Positions 1 through 13,448 of a stretch of DNA of 13,448 nucleotides are shown one piece after another (position 1 is the stretch's first letter; the number at the start of each line of letters is the position of its first letter). Both the position numbers and the translations under genes were made by a program. The notes beneath the pieces were generated by a model. That model did not search any database, was not told where the DNA came from, and was given only the letters and a program-made list of their open reading frames with translations. This DNA is from a virus (taxonomy: Duplodnaviria; Heunggongvirae; Uroviricota; Caudoviricetes). The DNA lies in IMG/VR virus record IMGVR_UViG_2529293240_000021, positions 1-13,448 of that record. One strand, 5' to 3'.

Positions 1-1545
1 TCATTGAGCTTCTCGATCACTTCGCGCAACCAGTCCTCCGGCTCCACTTCGTTCTGTTTGCAGGTGACCAGCAGACTGTAGATGATCGCCGCACTTTCTC
101 CTCCCTTGTCTGAGCCGAAAAAGAGATAAGTTTTTTCTTCCAACCGCCACCGATCGTAACGCGTTTTCACCGATGTTGTTGTCTATTTCCACCCAGCCGT
201 CACGACAGAACTCGTTCAGCGCATTCCAGTGATTCAGGATATAGTCGAACGCCTTCGCCATCTCCGCATGTTTCGACAGCGTTTTCCTCTGCAACTGTAT
301 CCAGTCGTACAACGACTGCATCAACTGGACGCTTCTGGCTTTTCTGACTGCAAGCCGTTCCTCTGCCGGACTGCCACGTATCTCCGCTTCTATGTCGTAT
401 AACTCTGCTATCCGTCTGAGCGCTTCCTGAGTCATTTCTGTCGGACGGCGCACATCCTCGTCATGGATTTTTCGGCGGGCGTGGGCCAGGCACCCGGCTT
501 CCTTCACCCGGCCCGTTTCGTACAGTACGTTATAACCTGCATAGGCATCAGCCTGCAGTACGCCCTGATACTTTGCCAGGTGGAGCTGCGGATGTTCTCC
601 TTTGCGATCTGCCGAATACGCGAACCAGACGGCTGCCGGCAGGGATGAACCCGCATTACGATCATCCCTGACGTATACCCACAGACGACCCGTTTTCGTC
701 TTTCCGTTCCCCGGGGCCAGTACTTTCACCGGAGTGTCATCTGCGTGCACCTTTCCTGCCTCCAGAACATAGTCATTCAGCGCTATATACAGAGGACGGA
801 GTTTGTCTGCCATTTCTGATACCCAGCGCACCATGGTATTACGGCTCAGCTCCACGCCCTGTCGCGCGTATATTTCTGACTGGCGATATAAAGGGATATG
901 TTCCATATATTTGCTGACCAGGATCCGTGCAAGTAACCCTGCACTGGCATAACCGCGTTCGATCGGTTTAGGAGGAAGTGGTGCCTGAACGATGACATCA
1001 CACCGGCTACAGGCCAGTTTGGGACGTATGGTTTCGATAACTTTAAAGGCGGTATTAATGATATCCAGTTGCTCTGAGATTGTTTCCCCCATTTCTTTCA
1101 GAACACCTCCACAGGCCGGGCAACTGGTTTCAGCAGGCAGAAGGCGATGTGTCTCCCGGGGAAGTTCTGCCGGCAGCGGTTTTCGTGAAGATTTTCGTCC
1201 CGGGAATTCAGGCTTACTGGCGATCGGGTTTTCTGACGGGGGACTGGTGTCAGGTGAATCTGTGACTGACGATGCATCTTCCAGAAGATTTCTGGCTGTG
1301 TTCAGCCGGTTTTCCAGTTCCGACAGTCGTTTTTCTGCCTGTCGGATCTGATTTTCAAGCTTATGACGCTTTTTCTCTGAACTCTGGCCGAACAACATAC
1401 GACGCAACCTGTCGAGTTGCGCTTTCAGCCGTTCAATTTCCTGCTCATAGCCCGCGACCTGACAGGCATACTGTCGAAGCCGACTCTGTTGCTTACGCAA
1501 CATGGCTTTAAGCAGCTCAATATCATCGGGGAGTTCATTGTTCAT
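1..1545 (-). CDS. tnpC: IS66-family transposase TnpC; 3' end appears frameshifted (possible pseudogene)
   Basis: 514-aa ORF with IS66 transposase motifs (CxxC zinc-finger-like region, ...[36 protein letters not shown]). After GRKN the annotated frame becomes Arg-rich low complexity, while another frame encodes a protein-like tail ([43 protein letters not shown]) that runs off the window edge. Confidence 0.8.
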
Positions 1546-1564
1546 TCCCTTGTTTTATCACGGG

Positions 1565-1912
1565 TTATATCCGGATGCCAGGCCGTTCTGTCCGTTTGGG
1601 ATGTTGCCACGCGATCCCCTCCAGTAGCATGGATAACTGAGCTGGCGTCAGGTGCACTTTCCCTTCCCGGGTCACCGGCCAGACGAAGCGGCCCCGTTCC
1701 AGGCGTTTGGCGAACAGGCATAACCCGTCACGATCGGCCCACAGTATTTTCACCATTTTGCCACTGCGGCCCCGGAAGACGAAGATATGCCCGGAGAACG
1801 GGTCATCTTTCAGCGTGTTCTGCACCTTCGAAGCCAGGCCATTGAAGCCACAACGCATATCTGTGATGCCAGCGATGATCCAGATTTTGGTACCGGTCGG
1901 CAGCGTTATCAT
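1565..1912 (-). CDS. tnpB: IS66-family accessory protein TnpB (Orf2)
   Basis: 115-aa ORF (MITLPTGTKIWIIAGITDMRCGFNGLA...) directly downstream of tnpA with a 4-nt ATGA overlap; size and position match IS66 Orf2. Confidence 0.85.
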   Translation of the reverse strand: MITLPTGTKIWIIAGITDMRCGFNGLASKVQNTLKDDPFSGHIFVFRGRSGKMVKILWADRDGLCLFAKRLERGRFVWPVTREGKVHLTPAQLSMLLEGIAWQHPKRTERPGIRI

Positions 1913-2583
1913 CGGATACCCCCTTTCATTTCGCGGATTAGCGCCCGTAACAGTTCCGGAGTGAGAGGGTCAAACAGTTTTACCACACCTGATTTAAGAT
2001 GCAGCTCGCACCGTGGGACGTTTCCGGGAGCCCCCTCAGGGCGCTCATCATGCTTGTTACGCCAGAAGGGATTTGTAACTGGTCTGGTCGGCTCCGGCGT
2101 ATCAGTCAGAGCCACCGGGACAGGCATGCATTCCTGTATGTCATCATCGCTCAGTAAGCCGTCCTCGTACTGGCTTTTCCATTTAAACAGCAGGTTATTA
2201 TTGATATCGTGTTCTCTGGCGATCCGGGCAACAACAGCCCCAGGCTGTAACGCCTGCTTAGCCAGACGGACCTTAAATTCACGGCTATAGCTGGTTCGCC
2301 GTTCTTTTCGCCATGAGCCTTCTCTGATTTGAGGCTCTGTTAATTCCTTCTTTCTGTTGGCATAAAGGATGGCGTCAAGTTGAGCGAATGAAACTGAATC
2401 GGGCAATGGCCATGCGATACCGGATGCAAGAAATCGCTGAAAAAGCGTATGTATTGTGGAATGACTGAGACCCAGACGCTGAGCGATGGCCCGGATGGTC
2501 AGTTTATCTTCAAATCTTAAACGCAGGGCATCAGGCAAATAAGAACGGAAGCAGGGAATATCTTTTGTTGTCTGGGAATTCAT
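1909..2583 (-). CDS. tnpA: IS66-family accessory protein TnpA (Orf1), long form with extra N-terminal HTH region
   Basis: 224-aa ORF, first gene inside the IS end. C-terminal half (REFKVRLAKQALQPGAVVARIAREHDINNNLLFKWK) resembles the IS66 Orf1 HTH region; N-terminal half has a second HTH-like segment (TIRAIAQRLGLSHSTIHTLFQRF). Confidence 0.8.
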   Translation of the reverse strand: MNSQTTKDIPCFRSYLPDALRLRFEDKLTIRAIAQRLGLSHSTIHTLFQRFLASGIAWPLPDSVSFAQLDAILYANRKKELTEPQIREGSWRKERRTSYSREFKVRLAKQALQPGAVVARIAREHDINNNLLFKWKSQYEDGLLSDDDIQECMPVPVALTDTPEPTRPVTNPFWRNKHDERPEGAPGNVPRCELHLKSGVVKLFDPLTPELLRALIREMKGGIR

Positions 2584-2640
2584 CGTTCGTGTCCATCAAT
2601 ATAGATGGGCGCGATTGTTGCCAGACAGGACAATTTTCAC

Positions 2641-2665
2641 AAGACGTCGCTGATGGGGCGCTTAC
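2641..2665 (-). repeat. terminal inverted repeat of the IS66-family element (approximate extent)
   Basis: Minus-strand sequence GTAAGCGCCCCATCAGCGACGTCTT ending at 2665, about 80 bp upstream of the tnpA start. Inner boundary of the repeat is not determined. Confidence 0.65.
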
Positions 2666-2726
2666 TGTTGTTCTGAGGTGAGCATATCACCTCTGTTCAG
2701 GTGGCCAAATTCAGTGTGCCACTTCA
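2666..2726 (+). mobile_element. 61-bp terminal fragment of an IS3-family element (IS911-like right end), truncated by the IS66-family insertion
   Basis: Plus strand 2691-2726 reads CTCTGTTCAGGTGGCCAAATTCAGTGTGCCACTTCA, whose complement starts TGAAGTGGCACACTGAATTTGGCCACC. This is a TGA...TCA-type IS3-family terminal repeat that I recall as the IS911 right end. It abuts the IS66 terminus at 2665/2666. Confidence 0.5.
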
Positions 2727-2972
2727 AAAGCTGAAAATGATGCTCTTCGGCGCAAGCTTGATAATGGTGGTCGGGTGCTCGTCAAAGGAAAATGCCCTGT
2801 GCCATCCTCAGCCGAAACCTCCAGCGCCTCCGGCATGGGCAATGATGCCACCGTCGAACTCTCTCCAGTTGCTGGACGAAACGTTCTCGGTATCCGGGAC
2901 GGAATCATCAGCGACCAGACAGCATTGAGAATGCTTCAGGAGTACATCAGGATCCAATGCCTTGGGGGGTAG
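2727..2972 (+). pseudogene. Rz: Rz-like i-spanin, 3' fragment only (5' part removed at the IS boundary)
   Basis: Frame open from the IS end: KAENDALRRKLDNGGRVLVKGKCPVPSSAETSSASGMGNDA...QCLGG*. The KAENDALR and S-A-E-T-S-S-A-S-G-x-x-N-D-A segments resemble the C-terminal half of lambda Rz (AKAENDALRDD...REATTASGVDNAA...). No start codon or N-terminal TM segment is present. Confidence 0.6.
2737..2928 (+). CDS. Rz1: Rz1-like o-spanin lipoprotein, embedded in the +1 frame of Rz
   Basis: 63-aa ORF MMLFGASLIMVVGCSSKENALCHPQPKPPAPPAWAMMPP...: signal peptide with lipobox (VVGC) followed by a proline-rich stretch, closely resembling lambda Rz1 (MLKLKMMLCVMMLPLVVVGCTSK...KPPPPPAWIMQPP). Entirely inside the Rz frame. 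Confidence 0.55.
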   Translation: MMLFGASLIMVVGCSSKENALCHPQPKPPAPPAWAMMPPSNSLQLLDETFSVSGTESSATRQH

Positions 2973-3060
2973 CGGTAATTTTACTCATTATCCTTCAAAT
3001 CAGATTCTGTTGTCAGAGGAATGGGGGAAGCTGGATTCGCAAGAGCTTTTTATGGGCAGT

Positions 3061-3570
3061 TTAGCTAAAAAAAGGCAACACGAAGCTAAAACTACCAACA
3101 TAAAGTGCTGACCAGCTAGCAGCTGAAATCAGACTCACTGTATACACTTTCACTGGATGAAGTTGCAACATTCCTGCCACCAAAGGAGCAATGTAACGCA
3201 GCACGGCGATAAAGCGCGAAGTGAAAAGTATTGACACAGAGTTATTTTGCAACTGAAGGCGAACCCGTTCTATTGTATTGGAACGGCTCGATATTATACA
3301 TGCAAGTTGAGGGATATGCCCAATTATTATACCAAGATGGTAATTAACGATAGTACCGCACCATGCGCCACTCATGACCGTGATTCCAGCTTCCCATGGT
3401 GAAAGAGTCGTCTTGCTGACTGTAATTACAGTGGCCATCATAATTGATGCTGGTGGCAATATCGCCGAAATGAGTAAAGTGGATTTTGTGAACGCTATTA
3501 TAAAAAGAAGCCCCCATAGGCGATATGGATGAAGTACAAAATAGTTCATCAAAGCATTTATCCACTCCAT
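3061..3570 (-). CDS. YqaA/DedA-family inner-membrane protein (probable prophage moron)
   Basis: 169-aa hydrophobic ORF. Segments align by eye to E. coli YqaA (FLSATLLPGNSEVVLVAML vs LLISAILPPASIMMATVIT; HPWVLVLTATMGNSLGGLTNVILG vs SPWEAGITVMSGAWCGTIVNYHLG; SWMPVVGDLLCLLAGWMRIS vs SRFIAVLRYIAPLVAGMLQLH). RBS AAGGAAA lies 7 nt upstream of the ATG at 3570. Oriented opposite to the flanking phage genes. Confidence 0.65.
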   Translation of the reverse strand: MEWINALMNYFVLHPYRLWGLLFIIAFTKSTLLISAILPPASIMMATVITVSKTTLSPWEAGITVMSGAWCGTIVNYHLGIIIGHIPQLACIISSRSNTIERVRLQLQNNSVSILFTSRFIAVLRYIAPLVAGMLQLHPVKVYTVSLISAASWSALYVGSFSFVLPFFS

Positions 3571-3767
3571 CAATGTCTTTCCTTCTGTGAATTTTTCTTT
3601 GCTATTTAACCGTGATACGACTTAATTTAGGCTTAAACACCTTACATTTACAAGGTACTCCTGTGGGGGGCCCTGCCACGGAGCGTCGCAGGAGTGAGTG
3701 ATGAGGAAGAATTAAAGCAACCTATTGTGACAGGCAGCGATAACAGTAAATCACAGGAAGCATAATC

Positions 3768-4532
3768 ATGGCAAAACCGGACTGGGAGGCCATCGAATCG
3801 GCATACCGGGCCGGAGTCCTTAGCCTCCGTGATATAGGCGAGAAATACGGCGTTACAGAAGGGGCTATCAGGAAGAGGGCCAAAAAGCTTGGTTGGGCAC
3901 GCAGTGGCGGTACGCAGGTTTGCAAAAATGGTACGCAAAAAAGGAAAGTGCGTACCAGCAGAAAGCCTGCCATTACTGGCCTTACACAAAAAAGTACGCA
4001 ACTAAAAACAGAATCTACACCGGATACGAAACCGATACGCGGAATGCGTACCGATCCCCCGACTAACCCATTCCAACCCGGTAACCAGCAGGCATTAAAA
4101 CACGGTGGTTATGCCCGTCGCCTTCTGCTCAAAGATGAGGTGATAGAGGACGCTAAAGCGTTGACGCTCGAGGACGAATTATTTCGCCTTCGTGCTAACA
4201 ACCTTGTCGCTGCAGAGAATATTGGTCGGTGGTTGGTGTCGCTGGAAGATGCTAATGGGGACCAGGAAAGGAAGATGCTGATTGAAAATATCAGCGCCGC
4301 CGAGAAAGCAATGATGCGCAATACAGTTCGTATTGAGTCCATCGTTGGCACGCTTGCGACGGTAGGAAAAATATTTGCTGATACAGCCTACCGCAAGGCC
4401 GCCACTGATAAGGTGTCTCTGGAGGCTGATCGTCTTCGCCGTGATGCAGGTATTGATGATGGCAATGGAGAGCGTGACCTCAATGACTTCTACTCTGACA
4501 TCCAAACCGACGCTGAATCCGGCTTTACGTAG
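3768..4532 (+). CDS. terS: phage terminase small subunit (N-terminal HTH DNA-binding domain)
   Basis: 254-aa ORF with AGGAAG RBS 6 nt upstream. N-terminus MAKPDWEAIESAYRAGVLSLRDIGEKYGVTEGAIRKRAKKLGW is a typical small-terminase HTH. It sits immediately upstream of, and overlaps, the large-terminase ORF. Confidence 0.7.
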   Translation: MAKPDWEAIESAYRAGVLSLRDIGEKYGVTEGAIRKRAKKLGWARSGGTQVCKNGTQKRKVRTSRKPAITGLTQKSTQLKTESTPDTKPIRGMRTDPPTNPFQPGNQQALKHGGYARRLLLKDEVIEDAKALTLEDELFRLRANNLVAAENIGRWLVSLEDANGDQERKMLIENISAAEKAMMRNTVRIESIVGTLATVGKIFADTAYRKAATDKVSLEADRLRRDAGIDDGNGERDLNDFYSDIQTDAESGFT

Positions 4533-5150
4533 TTTCTGGACTATGCGGGCACGTAACAAAGTGCTTTATGGTGGTCGGTCATCGTCAAAATCATGGGATG
4601 CCGCTGGCATTGCCATATTTCTGTCGAATAAATACACCCTGCGTTTTTGTTGTGCCCGTCAGATCCAGAATAAAATCGAAGAGTCGGTGTATACCCTGCT
4701 CAAAATTCAGATAGACAGGTTTGGTCTGCGGCACCGTTTCCGTATTCTGAACAACAAAATCATTAACCGGGTTACTGGCTCGGAATTTGTTTTTTATGGA
4801 TTATGGCGCAACATCGAAGAAATTAAGTCACTGGAGGGGATCGATGTGTTGTGGCTGGAAGAAGCCCACGCACTGACGGAATACCAGTGGAAAATTCTGG
4901 AGCCAACGATCCGTAAAGAGGGTTCGGAATGCTGGTTCATATTCAACCCCGGACTTGTTACTGATTTCGTCTGGCGCAACTTCGTTGTTGATCCGCCCGA
5001 AGGCACTCTCATCCGCAAAATTAACTATGACGAAAATCCGTTTCTGTCTGACACCATGCTTAAGGTTATCGACGCGGCGCGACGCCGTGATCCGGATGGT
5101 TTTAAACATGTGTATGAGGGCGTTCCGGAGTCTGATGATGATGCGGCAAT
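4483..5150 (+). pseudogene. terL: terminase large subunit, N-terminal ATPase fragment, interrupted by IS2
   Basis: ORF with a Walker-A-like motif (VLYGGRSSSKSW) and Walker-B-like DVLWLEEAH. The reading frame runs into the IS2 left end and stops 6 codons later. Start chosen at ATG 4483 (GGAG 12 nt upstream); 4543 is an alternative. Confidence 0.85.
5146..5150. repeat. 5-bp target-site duplication (GCAAT), left copy, flanking IS2
   Basis: GCAAT immediately precedes the IS2 left terminus TAGACTGGCC at 5151; an identical copy follows the right terminus. Confidence 0.9.
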
Positions 5151-5241
5151 TAGACTGGCCCCCTGAATCTCCAGACAACCAGTATCACTTATTTAAGTGA
5201 TAGTCTTAATACTAGTTTTTAGACTAGTCATTGGAGAACAG

Positions 5242-5607
5242 ATGATTGATGTCTTAGGGCCGGAGAAACGCAGACGGCGTACCACACAGGAAAAGATCGC
5301 AATTGTTCAGCAGAGCTTTGAACCGGGGATGACGGTCTCCCTCGTTGCCCGGCAACATGGTGTAGCAGCCAGCCAGTTATTTCTCTGGCGTAAGCAATAC
5401 CAGGAAGGAAGTCTTACTGCTGTGGCCGCCGGAGAACAGGTTGTTCCTGCCTCTGAACTTGCTGCCGCCATGAAGCAGATTAAAGAACTCCAGCGCCTGC
5501 TCGGCAAGAAAACGATGGAAAATGAACTCCTCAAAGAAGCCGTTGAATATGGACGGGCAAAAAAGTGGATAGCGCACGCGCCCTTATTGCCCGGGGATGG
5601 GGAGTAA
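5242..5607 (+). CDS. insC: IS2 OrfA (InsC), HTH protein
   Basis: 121-aa [59 protein letters not shown]..., matching IS2 InsC; GGAG RBS upstream. Confidence 0.9.
5559..5565 (+). promoter_or_regulatory. -1 programmed ribosomal frameshift slippery heptamer (A AAA AAG) of IS2
   Basis: AAAAAAG lies in X XXY YYZ register with the insC frame, and insD is open in the -1 frame from this point (frame arithmetic: insC at position mod 3 = 1, insD at mod 3 = 0). Confidence 0.8.
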
Positions 5608-6470
5608 GCTTAGTCAGCCGTTGTCTCCGGGTGTCGCGTGCGCAGTTGCACGTCATTCTCAGACGAACCGATGACTGGATGGATGGCCGCCGCAGTCGTC
5701 ACACTGATGATACGGATGTGCTTCTCCGTATACACCATGTTATCGGAGAGCTGCCCACGTATGGTTATCGTCGGGTATGGGCGCTGCTTCGCAGACAGGC
5801 AGAACTTGATGGTATGCCTGCGATCAATGCCAAACGTGTTTACCGGATCATGCGCCAGAATGCGCTGTTGCTTGAGCGAAAACCTGCTGTACCGCCATCG
5901 AAACGGGCACATACAGGCAGAGTAGCCGTGAAAGAAAGCAATCAGCGATGGTGCTCTGACGGGTTCGAGTTCTGCTGTGATAACGGAGAGAGACTGCGTG
6001 TCACGTTCGCGCTGGACTGCTGTGATCGTGAGGCACTGCACTGGGCGGTGACTACCGGCGGCTTCAACAGTGAAACAGTACAGGACGTCATGCTGGGAGC
6101 GGTGGAACGCCGCTTCGGCAACGATCTTCCGTCGTCTCCAGTGGAGTGGCTGACGGATAATGGTTCATGCTACCGGGCTAATGAAACACGCCAGTTCGCC
6201 CGGATGTTGGGACTTGAACCGAAGAACACGGCGGTGCGGAGTCCGGAGAGTAACGGAATAGCAGAGAGCTTCGTGAAAACGATAAAGCGTGACTACATCA
6301 GTATCATGCCCAAACCAGACGGGTTAACGGCAGCAAAGAACCTTGCAGAGGCGTTCGAGCATTATAACGAATGGCATCCGCATAGTGCGCTGGGTTATCG
6401 CTCGCCACGGGAATATCTGCGGCAGCGGGCTTGTAATGGGTTAAGTGATAACAGATGTCTGGAAATATAG
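5565..6470 (+). CDS. insD: IS2 OrfB (InsD), DDE transposase catalytic domain; expressed as InsCD fusion by -1 frameshifting
   Basis: 301-aa [41 protein letters not shown]... matching IS2 InsD; begins at the slip site in the -1 frame relative to insC. Confidence 0.9.
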
Positions 6471-6481
6471 GGGCAAATCCA

Positions 6482-6486
6482 GCAAT
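6482..6486. repeat. 5-bp target-site duplication (GCAAT), right copy, flanking IS2
   Basis: GCAAT immediately follows the IS2 right terminus ...CAAATCCA at 6481. Confidence 0.9.
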
Positions 6487-7222
6487 CATCAAACTGTCTT
6501 GGATAGAAGCCGCAGTGGATGCGCACAAAACGTTAAATTTCGAACCCAGTGGAAGAAAGCGTATTGGCTTTGACGTGGCTGACAGTGGTACAGATAAGTG
6601 CGCTAACGTTTACCGTCACGGATCCGTTGTTTTCTGGGCCGACGAATGGAAGGCCAAAGAAGATGAATTACTGAAGAGCTGCCAGCGTACTTATCAGGCG
6701 GCGCTGGAGCGTGAAGCAGATATTGTTTACGACTCTATCGGTGTTGGTGCGTCTGCCGGTGCTAAATTCTCTGAAATTAACGCTGACCGGAAGAGCGAGA
6801 ACGCATACGCGCGACGTGTGAATTACCAGAGGTTTAACGCCGGTGCTGGTGTGCATGAGCCAGATGACGAGTACAACGGCATCCCCAACAAAGACTTTTT
6901 CGCAAATCTTAAGGCTCAGGCATGGTGGCTGGTGGCTGACCGTTTCAGAAATACGTTTAACGCCATTAACAACGGAGAACAGTATCCTGTGGATGAGCTG
7001 ATCAGCATAGATTCTCGTTGTCCGTTGCTTGAAAAGCTGAAACTGGAACTGACAACACCTCATCGTGATTTCGACCGTAACGGACGTGTGATGGTCGAAA
7101 GTAAAAAAGACCTCGCAAAACGCGAGATACCGTCACCAAACGTTGCTGATGCATTCATTATGGCCTTCGCGCCAATCGATACATCGCTGGATATCTGGGA
7201 ACAGCTGGGGAGACAGGCCTGA
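6482..7222 (+). pseudogene. terL: terminase large subunit, C-terminal (nuclease) fragment, separated from its 5' part by IS2
   Basis: Open frame continues directly from the IS2 right end to a stop at 7220-7222. Joining to 4483-5150 after removing IS2 and one GCAAT copy is in frame. The stop overlaps the portal start (TGATG). Confidence 0.85.
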
Positions 7223-8688
7223 TGGCACGAAACAAACAAGCCCTGCGGCGAACTGTGCAGGCCACAGCTGATGGTTATGAGAATTTTATTGCCCGCGTAG
7301 GGATGCAGACACCTAACCAGCACTCAGCATCCACCTACCGGGCTAATTTCACCAGTCGTAACCGCATGCTGGTGGAATGGTCCTATCGTTCATCCTGGAT
7401 CATCGGCGAAGCAGTCGATGCTATCCCGGATGATATGACCCGCAAAGGCATTCGCATCACTTCGGAAATTGATGCAAAAGATCGTGGCATTCTCGAATCA
7501 CAACTGGATGAGTTGCAAATCTGGGATGCGCTGAATGACGTGCTGAAATGGTCGCGCCTCTACGGCGGCGCGGTGGGTTTCATCATGATTGAGGGGCAGG
7601 CACCAATGACCCCGCTGCGACCCGAAACCATCGGTAAGGGCAAGTTTAAGGGGATTCTCCCGCTCGACCGCTGGATGGTCGACCCGGCACTGACCCGCCG
7701 CATTAAAGATATGGGGCCGGACCTGGGTAAACCTGAGTTTTACGATGTGGTGACCACAGCAACGGGAATTCCTGCCTGGCGCATTCATCACAGTCGCCTG
7801 ATTCGCTTTGATGGCGTCACGTTGCCATTTCAGCAGAAGATGACCGAGAACGAATGGGGAATGTCGGTTGTAGAGCGTATCTGGGATCGTCTTACCGCGT
7901 TCGACAGCGCTACTGTCGGCGCGGCGCAGCTGGTCTACAAGGCGCATTTGCGTACCTACAGCGTGGAGAAGCTACGCGAGCTTATCGCACTTGGTGGTCC
8001 TGCGTATGAAGCGTTGCTGAAGAATATCGACCTGATTCGACAGTTCCAGAGTAATGAAGGCATGACGCTCATGGACTCGCGGGATAAGTTTGAAACCCAT
8101 CAGTACAGCTTCAGTGGTCTGGATGACATCCTTTCGCAGTTTGCAGAACAGATTAGTGGCGCTGTTGGTATCCCACTGGTGCGGTTGTTCGGACAGTCCC
8201 CGAAAGGATTTTCTACCGGTGATGCAGACCTTGCCAACTATTACGATCGCATCAGTTCGTTGCAGGAGAGGCGTTTACGTCTTCCGGTGCGGCGGATACT
8301 GGACATCATGCATCGTTCGGAACTTGGCAAGCCGCTGCCGGACGATTTCACGTTTGAGTTTAACCCGCTCTGGCAAATGTCTGATGTCGATCGCTCAACG
8401 GTGGCGTTAAACACCACCAACGCAATCAGTACGGCGCTGGGTGATGGTCTGATGACACTGAAAGCCGCTATGACTGATTTGCGAGAAAATTCTGACGTAA
8501 CCGGCATCGGGGCATCCATTACCGACGAGGACATCGAGAATGCCGAAGATGAAGCGCCGCCCGGCATCGGCGAACCTGATGACGAACCGCAGGAGCCGTC
8601 AGGCGGAAATCCGGTATCGAACCAGCCTACGCAGGATAGCGAGGGCGGTCGGAGACATCGTAAATGGTCGCTACGATGGTTCAAATGA
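7222..8688 (+). CDS. phage portal protein
   Basis: 488-aa ORF immediately after the large terminase with translational coupling (TGATG), followed by a Mu F-like gene, as in the SPP1-type order terL-portal-gp7. Acidic C-terminal tail. Family assignment is by position, size and overall resemblance, not by search. Confidence 0.7.
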   Translation: MARNKQALRRTVQATADGYENFIARVGMQTPNQHSASTYRANFTSRNRMLVEWSYRSSWIIGEAVDAIPDDMTRKGIRITSEIDAKDRGILESQLDELQIWDALNDVLKWSRLYGGAVGFIMIEGQAPMTPLRPETIGKGKFKGILPLDRWMVDPALTRRIKDMGPDLGKPEFYDVVTTATGIPAWRIHHSRLIRFDGVTLPFQQKMTENEWGMSVVERIWDRLTAFDSATVGAAQLVYKAHLRTYSVEKLRELIALGGPAYEALLKNIDLIRQFQSNEGMTLMDSRDKFETHQYSFSGLDDILSQFAEQISGAVGIPLVRLFGQSPKGFSTGDADLANYYDRISSLQERRLRLPVRRILDIMHRSELGKPLPDDFTFEFNPLWQMSDVDRSTVALNTTNAISTALGDGLMTLKAAMTDLRENSDVTGIGASITDEDIENAEDEAPPGIGEPDDEPQEPSGGNPVSNQPTQDSEGGRRHRKWSLRWFK

Positions 8689-9322
8689 CAGTATCACGGA
8701 AATTATTGCGGCGCTGGAGCGTTACAGTGAAATCATCACCCCCTGGGCGACAAAGGTCGCGGAAAACTTTACTGCGGACCTAACCCGGCAGAACGAGAAA
8801 GTTTGGCGGCAACACAGCAAGAACATCAGTCGCGAGCTCCGCAATCTTGTGGAAAGCGCTCCTGTGGGCCAGGTGATGCAATCCATCATCGCCGAACAGG
8901 TCAAGTACATCAAATCTCTGCCTCTCGAGGCCGCAGACAGGGTGTACGACATCCAGAACAAAGCGATAGAGGCTGTTGTCACCGGTGGTCGGGCGGAGCA
9001 GTTTGCTAAAGAGATTGCATCTACCGGCGATGTTGCTAAGTCTAGGGCCGATCTGATTGCCCGAACGGAACTGGGAAGAGCAACGGGCGCGCTGGATATG
9101 GCCCGAGCGATAGCTATTGGCTCGGATGGTTATATTTGGCGTACAGCCGATGATGGCGATGTCCGAGATTCCCACGATCACATGAAAGGTAAATTCGTCC
9201 GCTGGGATTCACCTCCAACTTTGGACGGCATGACCGGCCACGCGGGCGAGCTGCCAAACTGCCGCTGCTATAAAGAGATCGTGTTTGTTCGCGTTCCATT
9301 CGCAATGAAAAGGGCAGCATAA
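8579..9322 (+). CDS. phage head morphogenesis protein, Mu F / SPP1 gp7 family
   Basis: C-terminal region GYIWRTADDGDVRDSHDHMKGKFVRWD...LPNCRCY is the characteristic Mu F-like domain signature. Start is uncertain (ATG 8579 chosen, overlapping the portal 3' end by about 110 bp). Confidence 0.75.
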   Translation: MTNRRSRQAEIRYRTSLRRIARAVGDIVNGRYDGSNDSITEIIAALERYSEIITPWATKVAENFTADLTRQNEKVWRQHSKNISRELRNLVESAPVGQVMQSIIAEQVKYIKSLPLEAADRVYDIQNKAIEAVVTGGRAEQFAKEIASTGDVAKSRADLIARTELGRATGALDMARAIAIGSDGYIWRTADDGDVRDSHDHMKGKFVRWDSPPTLDGMTGHAGELPNCRCYKEIVFVRVPFAMKRAA

Positions 9323-9325
9323 CCC

Positions 9326-10546
9326 ATGAAATACTTTTTTGAGACCAGGCTCGGGGAAACCCGATACCGCCTGGCTGACGGCTCGTTGCTGTGCAAAGAC
9401 GTGCCGATAGGACGAACAGGTAAGCAGCTCTATGGTGCTGATGACCTGCCAAAACTGAAACCCGATAAGTTCGGTGAAATAGTCGTCACGCGTTCTCCTG
9501 AGCAGGTATTCCATCCGGCCACGCTTGCCTCATTCGAAGGGATGAGCATCACGATCCTGCATCCTGAAGATGAAAACGGGAATGTGCGGCTGGTAAATCC
9601 CGAGAACTGGAAAGAGCTTGCTGTCGGGCACCTCCAGAATGTCCGGCGCGGGACGGGTGAGCAGTCTGATTTGATGCTGGCTGACCTTATCGTCAAAGAC
9701 GAAAGCGCCATTCAGCTTATCGAAGATGGCCTGCGCGAAGTGTCGTGCGGCTATGACGCGGAGTACGAGCAGACCGAGCCAGGTAAAGCCGAGCAGGTCG
9801 ATATTACCGGAAACCATGTGGCTCTTGTCCCTAAAGGCAGAGCCGGAAATCGTTGTGCAATTGGAGACAGAGACACAATGGCAAATCAAAAGAAAAACTG
9901 GTGGAACCGCATGCGTGCGGCCATCAAGACAGGAGATGCCGACACCATGAACGAACTGGTGGAGTCGGCTCCCGCATCGGTTACAGGAGATGAGGGGGAT
10001 TTGCCGCAGGGCGTTAATCTCAACATCAACCTGTCCCCGCAGCAACCACTACCGGACAAAGCACCAGAGATGGGCGGAGATCCAACCGGCGACAGTGATG
10101 ATGACCTCAAAACATTACTGAAAGCCCTGCTGGCTAAGCTGGAAAGAAATGCCACGGGCGATAACGATAATAAGCCTGACGATAATCCGACCGGTGACGG
10201 CGAGGACGATGAAGAGGAAACCACGATTACTGGTGACTCAGCCTGGCGTGCCGAAGTTATCGTTCCGGGTATCGATCTGAGCCGTAAGATGAAACCGACC
10301 GCGTTCAAACGCGAGGTTCTGGCTTCTGCTGACAAAACGCTGGTTCGCCAGATAGTCGGTGATGCGGATATCCGCAAATTACCGAAACAATCGGTCGACA
10401 TGGCGTTTAATGCCGTGTCTGAGGTTGCCAAAGGGCGAAACACCCGCGCCACCACCGGCGATGCACAGCGCCTAAACATGGGCATGACCAGTATCGCTTC
10501 CCTGAACAAACAAAACGCTGAATTCTGGGCAAACCGTAAAGGGTAA
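9326..10546 (+). CDS. putative capsid scaffolding / prohead maturation protein
   Basis: 406-aa ORF between the Mu F-like gene and the capsid genes. Globular N-terminal domain followed by a strongly acidic, low-complexity central segment with reiterated TGD motifs, then a basic C-terminus. Assignment is by position and composition only. Confidence 0.45.
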   Translation: MKYFFETRLGETRYRLADGSLLCKDVPIGRTGKQLYGADDLPKLKPDKFGEIVVTRSPEQVFHPATLASFEGMSITILHPEDENGNVRLVNPENWKELAVGHLQNVRRGTGEQSDLMLADLIVKDESAIQLIEDGLREVSCGYDAEYEQTEPGKAEQVDITGNHVALVPKGRAGNRCAIGDRDTMANQKKNWWNRMRAAIKTGDADTMNELVESAPASVTGDEGDLPQGVNLNINLSPQQPLPDKAPEMGGDPTGDSDDDLKTLLKALLAKLERNATGDNDNKPDDNPTGDGEDDEEETTITGDSAWRAEVIVPGIDLSRKMKPTAFKREVLASADKTLVRQIVGDADIRKLPKQSVDMAFNAVSEVAKGRNTRATTGDAQRLNMGMTSIASLNKQNAEFWANRKG

Positions 10547-10549
10547 AAA

Positions 10550-11056
10550 ATGAATAATGTATTTCTGTACCGGATGCCTGTTGGCATTGCCGGGGCTGTC
10601 TCTCGCCCGCAGGACTTAACCGTCGAACCGGTGGTCCTTAAATCCGATAACGCCTTCGCTGCCTATGGCCTGGCTGGTAAATACGATGATGACGGTTTTT
10701 TCGTGCCGCTGGCAGATGGTGATACCGCAGACAAGGTGAAGGGGATCTACGTGCGCCCTTATCCGACCACGTCGCAGCCGGACATGGTTCGCCAGGTGGG
10801 AACAGGCAAGAACTTCCCGGGCGACGCCATGAAGCGTGGCTACGTGACCGTTAATCTCGGTTCTGATTTTGATGCCAGCACTATCAAAAAAGGCGATCCG
10901 GTATACGTTGTCGTCTCCACTGATGAATCCATCAAAGTGCCGCTGGGTGGATTCATGTCCACGTCAGTCAGTGGCAAAAACGTGGTGCTGACCAACGCTG
11001 AATTCACAGGTGCCGGTGATGCTGACGGCAATGCAGAAATTTCCTGGAAGATTTAA
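10550..11056 (+). CDS. putative head decoration / cement protein
   Basis: 168-aa ORF tightly packed (3-bp gap) between the putative scaffold and major capsid genes; Gly/Val/Asp-rich, beta-rich-looking composition. Assignment is by position only. Confidence 0.35.
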   Translation: MNNVFLYRMPVGIAGAVSRPQDLTVEPVVLKSDNAFAAYGLAGKYDDDGFFVPLADGDTADKVKGIYVRPYPTTSQPDMVRQVGTGKNFPGDAMKRGYVTVNLGSDFDASTIKKGDPVYVVVSTDESIKVPLGGFMSTSVSGKNVVLTNAEFTGAGDADGNAEISWKI

Positions 11057-11067
11057 GGAACAGACGA

Positions 11068-12009
11068 ATGATTACTTTTGATCAGGCAACCGTTGACAGC
11101 TCTGGTGCCTTTCTCATCGGGGAGCTGGAGCGACTCGACCAGACGCTGAACCTGCCACTGGTGGGGTACACCTGGAGCCGCGATATTCAACTGCGTGAAG
11201 ACGTCTCCATCGCAGATGACATTTCCAGCTGGACGAATACCAGCTTCGCCGCTGCGGGTACTGGCGCAAATCCGAATGGAAAAAACTGGGTAGGCAAAGA
11301 CTCAACCGCTATTGCTGGCGTGAACGTGGATATCGGCAAATCCGGTAACCCGCTGAACCTGTGGGGGATGGAACTTGGCTGGACGGTCATAGAATTGCAG
11401 GCTGCTCAGCAGGTCGGCCGCCCGATTGATACGCAGAAGTATGACGGTATGCAACTGAAATGGCAGATGGATAACGATGAACAGGTATATGTTGGCGATT
11501 CCGCATTAAACCTGAAAGGCCTTGTTACCCTGGACGGCGTGCCTGTCAACAACGCTGCCAAAACGTGGGCAACCTCAACACCGGACGAAATCCGCGCAAG
11601 CATTAACCAGGTGCTGTCTGATGCGTGGGCCGCTTCTGGTTACTCTGTGGTTCCGCGTGATTTGCTGATCCCGCCTGAGCAGTTTGCTCTGTTGTCCAGC
11701 ATCATCGTTTCATCTGCAGGTAACCAGTCCCTGTTGACGTACCTTCAGACCAACACCATCAGCTATCACCAGAACGGTGTTCCGCTGAATATCCGCGCGG
11801 TTAAATGGCTGAAAGGCCGTGGTGTGGGGAATAAGGATCGCATGGTTGCGTACACCAACGATAAAAAATACGTCCGCTACCCGCTGGTTCCGCTTCAGAG
11901 CGTGCCGGTGCAGTATCGCGGTCTGTATCAGATCGTCACTTACTACGGCAAGCTGGGTGCAGTCGAGCCAGTGTACAAAGAAACCATTTCGTACGTTGAT
12001 GGCATTTAA
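11068..12009 (+). CDS. putative major capsid protein
   Basis: 313-aa ORF with strong RBS (AAGGAA 8 nt upstream), last gene of the head block and followed by a stable hairpin. Size and position fit a major capsid protein. Confidence 0.6.
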   Translation: MITFDQATVDSSGAFLIGELERLDQTLNLPLVGYTWSRDIQLREDVSIADDISSWTNTSFAAAGTGANPNGKNWVGKDSTAIAGVNVDIGKSGNPLNLWGMELGWTVIELQAAQQVGRPIDTQKYDGMQLKWQMDNDEQVYVGDSALNLKGLVTLDGVPVNNAAKTWATSTPDEIRASINQVLSDAWAASGYSVVPRDLLIPPEQFALLSSIIVSSAGNQSLLTYLQTNTISYHQNGVPLNIRAVKWLKGRGVGNKDRMVAYTNDKKYVRYPLVPLQSVPVQYRGLYQIVTYYGKLGAVEPVYKETISYVDGI

Positions 12010-12016
12010 CAGCCAC

Positions 12017-12037
12017 ATGGCCCCCTGGCGGGGCCAT
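12017..12037 (+). other. GC-rich stem-loop (9-bp stem ATGGCCCCC / GGGGGCCAT, 3-nt loop) just downstream of the capsid gene; no U-tract
   Basis: Perfect inverted repeat read directly from the sequence, starting 8 nt after the capsid stop codon and 14 nt before the next start codon. Confidence 0.45.
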
Positions 12038-12050
12038 TAAGGATGACCCG

Positions 12051-12249
12051 ATGGCAAAAAATGATGCAGTAATACACGTACATACCCCGTTTGTGCTCAC
12101 GCTTCCCGACGGTTCTCGGCGCGAGTTTGTTAAAGGCCGTCATGTTGTGGAGGAAGACGTTGCCACGCACTGGTTCACTCGTGCGCACGCGGAAGTATCC
12201 GTTGGCAAAGCCACAGACGCGCGTAACGAGGTAAAAAATGCCAAAGAAT
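12051..12249 (+). pseudogene. small phage ORF downstream of capsid gene, 3' end replaced by IS3-family insertion
   Basis: ORF with RBS (AAGGATG) begins at 12051. The IS terminus (TGAGGTGTACTGGCAATAGCGGACAC) begins at 12250 inside codon 67, so the last 14 codons of the 81-aa ORF are IS-derived. Confidence 0.4.
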
Positions 12250-12292
12250 TGAGGTGTACTGGCAATAGCGGACACTACCATTTGTTCTTTTT

Positions 12293-13111
12293 TTAAGCAG
12301 CCATCTGATGATATTTTTCCCTGAAGGCTGCCGGGGAGATATTCCCCAGACGAGAGTGACGACGCTGACGATTGTAGAAAATCTCAATGTATTCCCGTAT
12401 TACTGAGATGGCTTCATCCCGGTTATTAAAACGATAGTGGCTCAGGCTCTCATTTTTCAGAGTTCCCCAGAAGCTTTCCATCGGAGCGTTGTCGTAACAG
12501 TTACCTTTACGCGACATTGATGTTTTCAGACCAAACTGCTCCTGTATGACCCGGTAATCGTATGCGCAGTACTGTGAACCTCGATCAGAGTGGTGGATTA
12601 GCCCGGCAGGTGGGCGCTGGCTCCTGAGCGCCATAAACAGGGCTTTACCTGTCAGCTCTTTTGTCACGCGCTCTCCCATGGCGTAGCCGACAATTTCGCA
12701 CGTATAAACATCTTTGATGCCAGCGAGGTACAACCATCCCTCCTGTGTGGCAACATACGTCAGGTCCGCCACCCAGACCTGATTTGGTGCTGTAGGAGCG
12801 AACGTCTGGTTCAGCAGATTTGGCGCAACTGGCAGATTGTGGTTCGGGTTCGTAGTCGCTCTGAACTTGCGTTTCTGCTTACAGCGTAGCCTTAGCTCCT
12901 TACGAAGACGTGCCAGTCGGTCACGACCAACGATGATGCCATTCTCTGCCAGCTCCGTCTGGAGCCGCCGGGTTCCATATGTTTCGCGAGTGCGGATATG
13001 TGCCACCTTAATCTCCAGTTTTAGCCGCTCATCACTTTGTTTTCTGTCTGAGGGTTCATGCTGTACCCAGTTGTAATAACCGCTCCTGGATACACCAAAT
13101 ACCTGACACAT
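12293..13111 (-). CDS. IS3-family transposase OrfB (DDE catalytic domain)
   Basis: 272-aa ORF with integrase-core motifs (VWVADLTY, HHSDRGSQY, CYDNAPMESF). Its frame stays open upstream to the A-run at 13191-13197. Confidence 0.85.
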   Translation of the reverse strand: MCQVFGVSRSGYYNWVQHEPSDRKQSDERLKLEIKVAHIRTRETYGTRRLQTELAENGIIVGRDRLARLRKELRLRCKQKRKFRATTNPNHNLPVAPNLLNQTFAPTAPNQVWVADLTYVATQEGWLYLAGIKDVYTCEIVGYAMGERVTKELTGKALFMALRSQRPPAGLIHHSDRGSQYCAYDYRVIQEQFGLKTSMSRKGNCYDNAPMESFWGTLKNESLSHYRFNNRDEAISVIREYIEIFYNRQRRHSRLGNISPAAFREKYHQMAA

Positions 13112-13160
13112 CGCTTCAATGGGAAATTGTTGTCGCCATTGTTCGATTAACGCGTATTTT

Positions 13161-13448
13161 TCAGCGACTCCTGTGCAAAATACGCTGTTGCTTTTTTAAT
13201 ATATCTCGCTCAAGGCGAGCTTCATTTAACGCCTTACGCAGTTGCAGAATTTCAGATTCCAGTTCAGCCACCGTGCGGGAACCAGGAGTACCGAGCCCTT
13301 TTCTGGCGGCGGTAACCCATTGTCCTAAAGTGCCTTCAGGAAGGGATAATCGGGAAGCGCCTTCACTGATCGAAGGTTGATTTTCAAGAACCGTTCTGAC
13401 AGCTTCGGCTTTGAACTCTTTAGAGTAACGTTGGGTTTTTCTGCTCAT
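13161..13448 (-). CDS. IS3-family OrfA (HTH / leucine-zipper protein)
   Basis: 95-aa ORF starting at the last base of the window (ATG at 13446-13448, minus strand): MSRKTQRYSKEFKAEAVRTVLENQ...; C-terminal tail may be altered (see findings). Confidence 0.85.
   Translation of the reverse strand: MSRKTQRYSKEFKAEAVRTVLENQPSISEGASRLSLPEGTLGQWVTAARKGLGTPGSRTVAELESEILQLRKALNEARLERDILKKQQRILHRSR
13191..13197 (-). promoter_or_regulatory. A6G slippery run at the orfA/orfB junction of the IS600-like element (frame relation atypical)
   Basis: Minus strand reads TTA AAA AAG in the orfA frame, but orfB lies in the +1 frame, not the -1 frame, relative to orfA by coordinate arithmetic. Confidence 0.55.

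Follow-up and report, generated by a model that had tools for sequence, protein, structure and literature searches.

Recent insertion-sequence decay as the probable reason for an intact head-gene block in a Shigella/EIEC prophage remnant

Chromosomal ipaH genes have been described as flanked by prophages and pseudogenes (PMC9046306), and the list of islands of Shigella flexneri includes ipaH islands (PMC6424224). Shigella genomes have been reduced via the expansion of insertion sequences (IS), with ipaH located within decaying prophages (PMC9046306, PMC6424224, PMC8072062), and IS-driven prophage decay of this kind is already known. Here we analysed a stretch of 13,448 nucleotides (IMG/VR record IMGVR_UViG_2529293240_000021, positions 1 to 13,448, termed the window), which is 100% identical to part of the draft contig AFOW01000043.1 of assembly GCA_000217895.2 (locus L036; related loci are cited below by similar numbers) and which contains the lysis-to-capsid part of a prophage. 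The window prophage is colinear with complete ipaHb-carrying prophages found at pgl or ybhA and, likewise, this remnant is full of IS2, IS600, IS66-family and IS3-family elements, with IS-mediated deletion and rearrangement. It differs from the described ipaH islands in nothing essential. Within it, a block of five head genes (7222-12009) is uninterrupted, and we consider it very probable that these genes are intact through recency, as selectively neutral passengers in a defective prophage of Shigella or enteroinvasive Escherichia coli (EIEC) that undergoes ordinary IS-driven decay.

The head block and its more complete relatives

The five genes of the block are all found on the + strand. They encode a portal protein (7222-8688, 488 amino acids; Pfam Phage_portal_3, 3e-106; PHROG 146), a MuF-like head morphogenesis protein (8579-9322, 247 amino acids from the RefSeq start; Phage_Mu_F, 1.5e-18; PHROG 324), a DUF2213 protein that is a probable prohead protease or scaffold (9326-10546, 406 amino acids; Pfam DUF2213, 2.8e-42), a capsid cement or minor capsid protein (10550-11056, 168 amino acids; XM1_gp53_minor_capsid, 4e-30; Phage_cement, 3e-21) and a major capsid protein (11068-12009, 313 amino acids; Pfam Major_capside, 7e-88; PHROG 264). 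The open reading frame (ORF) map together with these strong matches bears out a first-pass annotation of the window, made from the sequence alone, in which the five genes were described as uninterrupted, full length and tightly packed. The ORF lengths of 488, 406, 168 and 313 amino acids are also those of phage vB_EcoM-611R5, with a small difference for the MuF protein (244 versus 247), and no hidden frameshift or premature stop was found in the window head genes compared with the intact homologues of this phage and of more complete prophages. An identical portal protein occurs in 570 blocks of assemblies.

The large terminase (TerL) and portal genes overlap by 1 nucleotide (nt), and the gaps following the MuF, DUF2213 and cement genes are 3, 3 and 11 nt, respectively. 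The junctions of 1-11 bp reported initially therefore hold for these genes but not for the portal and MuF genes, which overlap by 110-149 nt depending on whether the RefSeq start (8579) or the start of the longest ORF (8540) is taken for MuF. Purine-rich, Shine-Dalgarno-like motifs are present 5′ of the portal, DUF2213, cement and capsid genes, in agreement with the good ribosome-binding sites noted earlier.

Of 5426 complete E. coli genomes, 383 match the head block; identity is 99.9-100% in the top three, which include FDAARGOS_943 (L003) and FDAARGOS_944 (L001). The prophage adjoins pgl in FDAARGOS_944 and ybhA in FDAARGOS_943, and the type III effector gene ipaHb is found at the right end in both. 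In FDAARGOS_944, no IS interrupts the lysis genes (holin, endolysin and spanin), the terminase or the genes for neck, sheath, tube, tape measure and baseplate; a small DUF4054-adjacent gene downstream of the capsid gene is frameshifted and a tail-fibre gene is partial. Positions 2718-5150 and 6482-12249 of the window align colinearly to this prophage with 99.7-99.9% identity.

No nucleotide of the head block differs in L031 and L032, and a single one differs in each of L001, L016, L018, L019 and L021, the last five of which carry tail sheath, tube, tape-measure and baseplate genes. Lysis genes are intact in L001, L016, L018 and L021 and absent from L019, in which the left half has been replaced, while TerL is whole in L001, L016, L019 and L021 and frameshifted in L018; ipaHb is present where the locus reaches that far (L001). 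The first-pass annotation had suggested that identity of the block to an intact prophage elsewhere would point simply to recency, and the 0-1 nt separating the window from these five more complete prophages does point that way.

Free phages with the same gene order are more distant. The head block is 95.5% identical over its full length in vB_EcoM-606R2, -611R5, -689R2 and -683R1, and 79-85% identical in Salmonella phage SEN34, Hafnia phage yong1 and Citrobacter phage Omnitron. Unlike the window, vB_EcoM-611R5 is recorded with a terminase gene free of interruption and with complete lysis and tail modules, and compared with this phage the MuF gene is mosaic (82% identity).

Substitutions and disruptions among relatives

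For the comparison of close relatives, 32 related loci were gathered from public assemblies via three products encoded in the window, namely those of the portal gene, of the ORF at the IS600 junction and of the 3′ fragment of the terminase gene. Both the IS2 junctions in TerL and the IS600 junction past the capsid gene are common to the window and 20 other loci, most or all of which are S. flexneri; the IS-bearing clade includes CP000266 and CM001474, which we take to be S. flexneri 5 str. 8401 and M90T, respectively. Because the junctions recur in these 20 loci, the two insertions are ancestral to the clade. Divergence since the IS2 and IS600 insertions amounts to 0-0.25%. The earlier suggestion that the IS insertions are very recent is thus essentially right, with more complete prophages 0-1 nt away, except that the insertions are clade-wide and not private to one strain.

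We found zero derived substitutions in the head block of the window lineage, synonymous sites included, and a single nucleotide polymorphism (SNP) between the window and L031/L032 over 8.5 kb that include the IS2 copy and the terminase fragments. Since the whole region is invariant, at synonymous sites and in the dead flanks too, the block can be explained without selection on the head proteins. Furthermore, with zero substitutions no disruption is expected, and the intactness of the five genes is therefore not beyond chance. If three IS elements landed at random in the 8.2 kb of prophage DNA that is not IS, the chance of none falling within the 4.8-kb block would be about 0.07.

The same invariance bears on another explanation, namely that the block was recently overwritten by homologous recombination from a superinfecting phage or a second prophage, and that the remnant is older than its sequence suggests. 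The branches leading from the same IS-bearing ancestor are asymmetric (0-2 versus 8-11 substitutions), nearly identical prophages are found across many Shigella and EIEC lineages, and the cluster of differences in L017 and L023 (9897-10473) has the look of a recombination patch, all of which would fit such a replacement. However, between the window and L031/L032 invariance is not confined to the block: it extends equally to the surrounding IS2 copy, terminase fragments and intergenic DNA, so that gene conversion of the head genes alone need not be invoked. Immediately right of the block, at 12063-12146, the window also has the alleles specific to the clade. We consider replacement of the block by recombination very unlikely.

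The first-pass annotation had offered as its alternative that the head genes are kept as the prophage loses mobility, for which comparison of nonsynonymous and synonymous changes was the suggested check. In the IS-bearing clade, the head genes contain 21 SNP events, of which 14-15 are nonsynonymous and 6 synonymous; under neutrality, 69-73% would be nonsynonymous and a further 3-5% stops. Between the window and vB_EcoM-611R5, the corresponding ratio is 57:136, with a nonsynonymous to synonymous rate ratio (dN/dS) of 0.00-0.17 per gene. The clade ratio is neutral and differs significantly from this purifying long-term pattern (Fisher test, p = 0.0003-0.0007). Furthermore, SNP density in the clade is 5.0 per kb in the head genes versus 3.7 per kb in the dead non-IS flanks and is not, accordingly, lower in the head genes. 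Genes that evolve at a dN/dS of about 0.1 in the living phage would thus turn neutral after the loss of the terminase and the tail.

The mutations in the dead head genes are themselves strongly skewed: 16 of the 21 events replace GC by AT, and G:C to T:A transversions account for 10 of the 21 (L004-L013 and L024-L033).

Disruptions in sister lineages were also found. Across the 32 loci, at least eight independent inactivating events affect the MuF, DUF2213, cement and capsid genes. In the cement gene, a 17-bp deletion shifts the frame in nine S. flexneri loci, and an IS has inserted with a deletion down to pgl in L017 and L023. MuF has lost 1 bp in L024 and carries a nonsense codon in FDAARGOS_943, DUF2213 is frameshifted in L017 and L020, and both the cement and capsid genes are frameshifted in L014. 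In addition, L024 and L033 have an in-frame deletion of 105 bp in the acidic linker of the DUF2213 protein (10085-10189), between the imperfect direct repeats CCAACCGGCGACAG and CCGACCGGTGACGG.

These results bear directly on selection that would keep the head genes after the loss of mobility, for instance as a capsid module for a satellite or another prophage, or as a particle resembling a gene transfer agent. The five intact ORFs beside three IS-hit neighbours would be in keeping with such selection, as would the portal and capsid ORFs that remain intact throughout the clade, and a partner element is conceivable since at least one relative genome has two places matching the block. However, the neutral clade ratio differs significantly from the purifying one, the SNP density of the head genes is not below that of the dead flanks, and the inactivating events recur across relatives. 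The window lineage lacks synonymous changes as well, with dead flanks that are equally invariant, and the block is left without a terminase, tail genes, an intact spanin or a promoter of its own. Domesticated particle systems such as gene transfer agents and tailocins likewise consist of a subset of structural genes in a host chromosome without autonomous mobility, but unlike these, the window block shows neither purifying selection nor conservation across lineages, and it has neither a complete particle gene set nor its own promoter. We regard maintenance by selection as very unlikely, and the neutral ratio, the SNP density and the independent disruptions speak against this part of the initial proposal.

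Several observations nevertheless weigh against recency as the sole reason for the intact block. No IS-bearing locus of the 21 has a broken portal or capsid ORF, and 10 of the 21 still have all five head ORFs intact. Moreover, the power to detect weak selection is low at 0-11 substitutions per lineage. The loci were found via ORFs that flank or lie inside the block, a sampling that leaves out lineages from which the whole block has been deleted. Finally, branch lengths are unequal, with 8-11 substitutions in S. flexneri versus 0-2 in the sub-clade of the window. At up to 11 substitutions per lineage, and with nonsense changes making up about 4% of random substitutions, the 10 of 21 loci with five intact ORFs are a chance outcome. 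The derived substitutions of S. flexneri in the block are rich in G:C to T:A changes, and a mutator episode or the recombinational spread of an IS-bearing allele is possible behind both this skew and the unequal branches. Because synonymous sites and dead flanks behave alike, the unequal branches reflect time, mutation rate or recombinational spread and not selection.

For the sub-lineage with five intact ORFs, a further thought is that the block serves as a reservoir, available through complementation or recombination to a satellite or to a related phage of this family, whether superinfecting or co-resident. Selection would then be weak and episodic, which is compatible with the few substitutions seen, but we hold this reading to be very improbable.

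With recency as the preferred explanation, the window is a quantified case of a block in an IS-riddled Shigella prophage that looks intact because it is young and very probably not because it functions, and it matters little beyond annotation. It suggests that in very young pseudogene landscapes such as those of Shigella, the intactness of ORFs is poor evidence of domestication.

Insertion elements and the loss of the tail module

All three neighbours reported initially as IS-hit, the terminase, the spanin and the gene after the capsid gene, are indeed disrupted: IS2 lies in TerL, IS3-family and IS66-family sequences lie at the spanin gene Rz, and IS600 lies in a gene of the STY1053 family. 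The 5′ part of TerL (nt 1-668 of 1404) occupies 4483-5150 on the + strand (Pfam Terminase_3, 9e-39) and the 3′ part (nt 664-1404) occupies 6482-7222, also on the + strand, with a weak Terminase_3C match; both parts align to the TerL of L001. Between them, IS2 (1331 bp, + strand, 5151-6481) was delimited by its junctions relative to the uninterrupted L001 gene. Its target duplication is the 5-bp GCAAT at 5146-5150 and 6482-6486, and the IS-free relative reads straight across. The element is named IS2 by the RefSeq annotation of the relative L003, and IS600 is likewise named by RefSeq annotation in relatives.

TerL has been struck by IS2 twice independently, after nt 668 in the clade of the window and at nt 449-454 in FDAARGOS_943 (L003 19757-22496). 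IS2 is also found within the endolysin gene of L017 and the DUF1367 gene of L022. In addition, a tandem TGGTGGC repeat in the TerL 3′ fragment (6923-6936) loses one of its two copies through a 7-bp deletion. The deletion is present in S. flexneri loci and also in L014 and L018, which lack IS2 and in which it frameshifts an otherwise whole terminase gene. Because one tandem copy is removed, we interpret the deletion as recurring slippage; such slippage can recur, and we rejected the deletion as a mark of shared ancestry of S. flexneri with L014 and L018.

At the left end, the gene for the Rz i-spanin (about 2727-2972, + strand) keeps its 3′ half only, behind the 60-bp end of an IS3-family element (2666-2726, strand not assigned) that disrupted Rz and behind an IS66-family element. 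In the blastn alignment, nt 217-471 of the 471-nt L001 lysis gene match window 2718-2972, with true homology starting at about 2727, at the end of the IS sequence. The Rz/Rz1 remnant matches Pfam Rz1 (4.7e-21) and an Rz-like spanin PHROG. The embedded ORF for the Rz1 o-spanin (2701-2928, + strand) is intact, despite the loss of the 5′ half of the enclosing Rz gene. The 2666-2726 stretch is common to S. flexneri loci that carry a full IS at this place (L025 5032-6200) and absent from the IS-free L001.

The IS66-family element, which is ISSfl3-like, occupies 1-2665 on the - strand, with tnpC at 1-1545, tnpB at 1565-1912 and tnpA at 1909-2583. L025 and L030 have IS66-family copies with 99.8% identity to it, the products of which match TnpB_IS66 and DDE_Tnp_IS66. 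The name ISSfl3 comes from the RefSeq annotation of an EIEC plasmid copy that matches the right end of the source contig. TnpC is a 514-amino-acid frameshift variant that is on record solely on the source contig. Relatives differ in their junctions and orientations at 1-2726, and the left border of the remnant is actively being rearranged.

On the right side, IS600 sits 40 bp past the capsid gene. It occupies 12250-13448 on the - strand and cuts the STY1053-family gene (12051-12249, + strand), which aligns to the L001 gene, at nt 199 of 222, creating a fusion ORF that extends to 12296; the ORF at the IS600/STY1053 junction is on record in 471 blocks of assemblies. The canonical length of IS600 is 1264 bp and 1199 nt are present, leaving about 65 nt of its far end beyond the end of the window.

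The first-pass annotation had asked whether tail genes exist beyond the right-hand IS600, and we found none in any relative examined, nor in the source contig. In L029-L032, IS600 lies between what are positions 25028 and 39825 in the complete prophage; the 14.8-kb deletion there (L001 25029-39824) takes all neck, tail and fibre genes and leaves a truncated DUF4376 gene and ipaH. The latter is reduced to a fragment in L029, and pgl comes next in L030-L032. In other S. flexneri loci, IS600 is followed by a Mu-like remnant and then by dcuC, pagP and cspE, an arrangement that indicates further IS600-mediated rearrangement.

For the window itself, ipaH lies outside, and the source contig continues after IS600 into plasmid-type sequence. 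The 2.9 kb right of IS600 (L036 13590-16508) is 99.9% identical to the 261-kb plasmid of the EIEC strain FDAARGOS_944 and holds a GNAT toxin with a TacA-type antitoxin, an IS4 fragment and ISSfl3. The plasmid carries an IS600 copy at the same junction and in the same orientation as the source contig. The IS600-plasmid join is either a chimeric draft join at a repeat or a real IS600-mediated integration of a virulence-type plasmid.

We propose that the parent phage was a myophage of the E217/Pam3 type with a lambdoid early region and an ipaH effector at its right end, which would have integrated beside pgl or ybhA. IS2 entered TerL, IS elements cut Rz and IS600 landed past the capsid gene, in an order of insertions and deletions that we infer. 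The whole neck and tail module was then lost, by the 14.8-kb deletion next to IS600 in the closest relatives and by further rearrangement in S. flexneri. Lying between two insertions, the five head genes were very probably just missed, and no point mutation has reached them in the window lineage since.

The late operon would be severed from its promoter by the IS elements and by a polar IS2, and the head block is thus presumably not expressed. Lacking a functional terminase, i-spanin and tail, the remnant is predicted to yield no packaged, tailed or released particle. The block probably does not work as a unit and would be expected to decay, as has already begun in sister lineages. The locus may persist through its neighbouring morons, ipaH and possibly a DedA gene, while in S. 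flexneri the block has come apart even from ipaH and is eroding.

The type of head module and neighbouring features

The block was initially called SPP1-like, a label that suits the gene order and the MuF protein only. As in the SPP1 module, the terminase is followed by the portal, the MuF-like gene, a gene in scaffold position, a small gene in decoration position and the capsid gene, and the MuF-like gene directly after the portal belongs to the family of SPP1 gp7 (PF04233, 1.5e-18). The portal, capsid, cement and tail genes, in contrast, are those of an E217/Pam3-type myophage. In the Pfam scan, the window portal matches PF06381 alone and the family of the SPP1 portal gp6 was not returned. 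The capsid and cement proteins belong to families different from those of SPP1, and the scaffold-position protein matches protease PHROGs. SPP1 has a siphovirus tail, whereas the relatives of the window encode a contractile one with sheath (DUF3383 / E217_gp31_N), tube, baseplate J and spike, and its free E. coli relatives bear vB_EcoM names.

Compared with E217, Pam3 and XM1, the window cement protein matches both PF22758 (E217 gp24 / Pam3 gp6; 3e-21) and PF23982 (XM1 gp53; 4e-30), with its gene between the protease/scaffold and capsid genes. The capsid protein matches PF09950 (7e-88) and the PDB chain 8hdt_A, a major capsid protein (5e-19). Furthermore, intact relatives of the window carry genes of the E217_gp27 and E217_gp31_N types. 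Judged by these protein families, the head module is of the E217/Pam3 type, with a distant relationship. The window phage differs from these phages in its lambdoid early region and in being a temperate phage of enterobacteria, and the link is a distant one, by sequence families.

The DUF2213 protein, initially labelled a putative scaffold, matches PHROGs 12864, 530 and 2229, which are annotated as head maturation protease. Searched by sequence against the PDB, the DUF2213 protein gave no match.

None of the six antisense ORFs (102-233 amino acids) inside 7222-12009 matches a Pfam family, and an Rfam scan of the whole window gave no match. A consensus scan returned 4 promoter-like sites, versus 4.6 expected, with none on the + strand upstream of the portal gene, and terminator-like sites inside 7222-12009 are at chance level.

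Left of TerL, the gene for the small terminase subunit (3768-4532, + strand, 254 amino acids; PHROG 370, 7.5e-95) is an intact ORF. Between the lysis cassette and this gene, a membrane protein with a DedA/VTT domain (Pfam VTT_dom, 9e-14) is encoded on the opposite strand (3061-3573, - strand) and is annotated as DedA at the equivalent place in L001 and L003. The DedA gene is probably a moron and may be a selected part of this end of the remnant. It is absent from L017, which has a gap there, and is kept in nearly every relative that retains the region, with one SNP event only in the IS-bearing clade.

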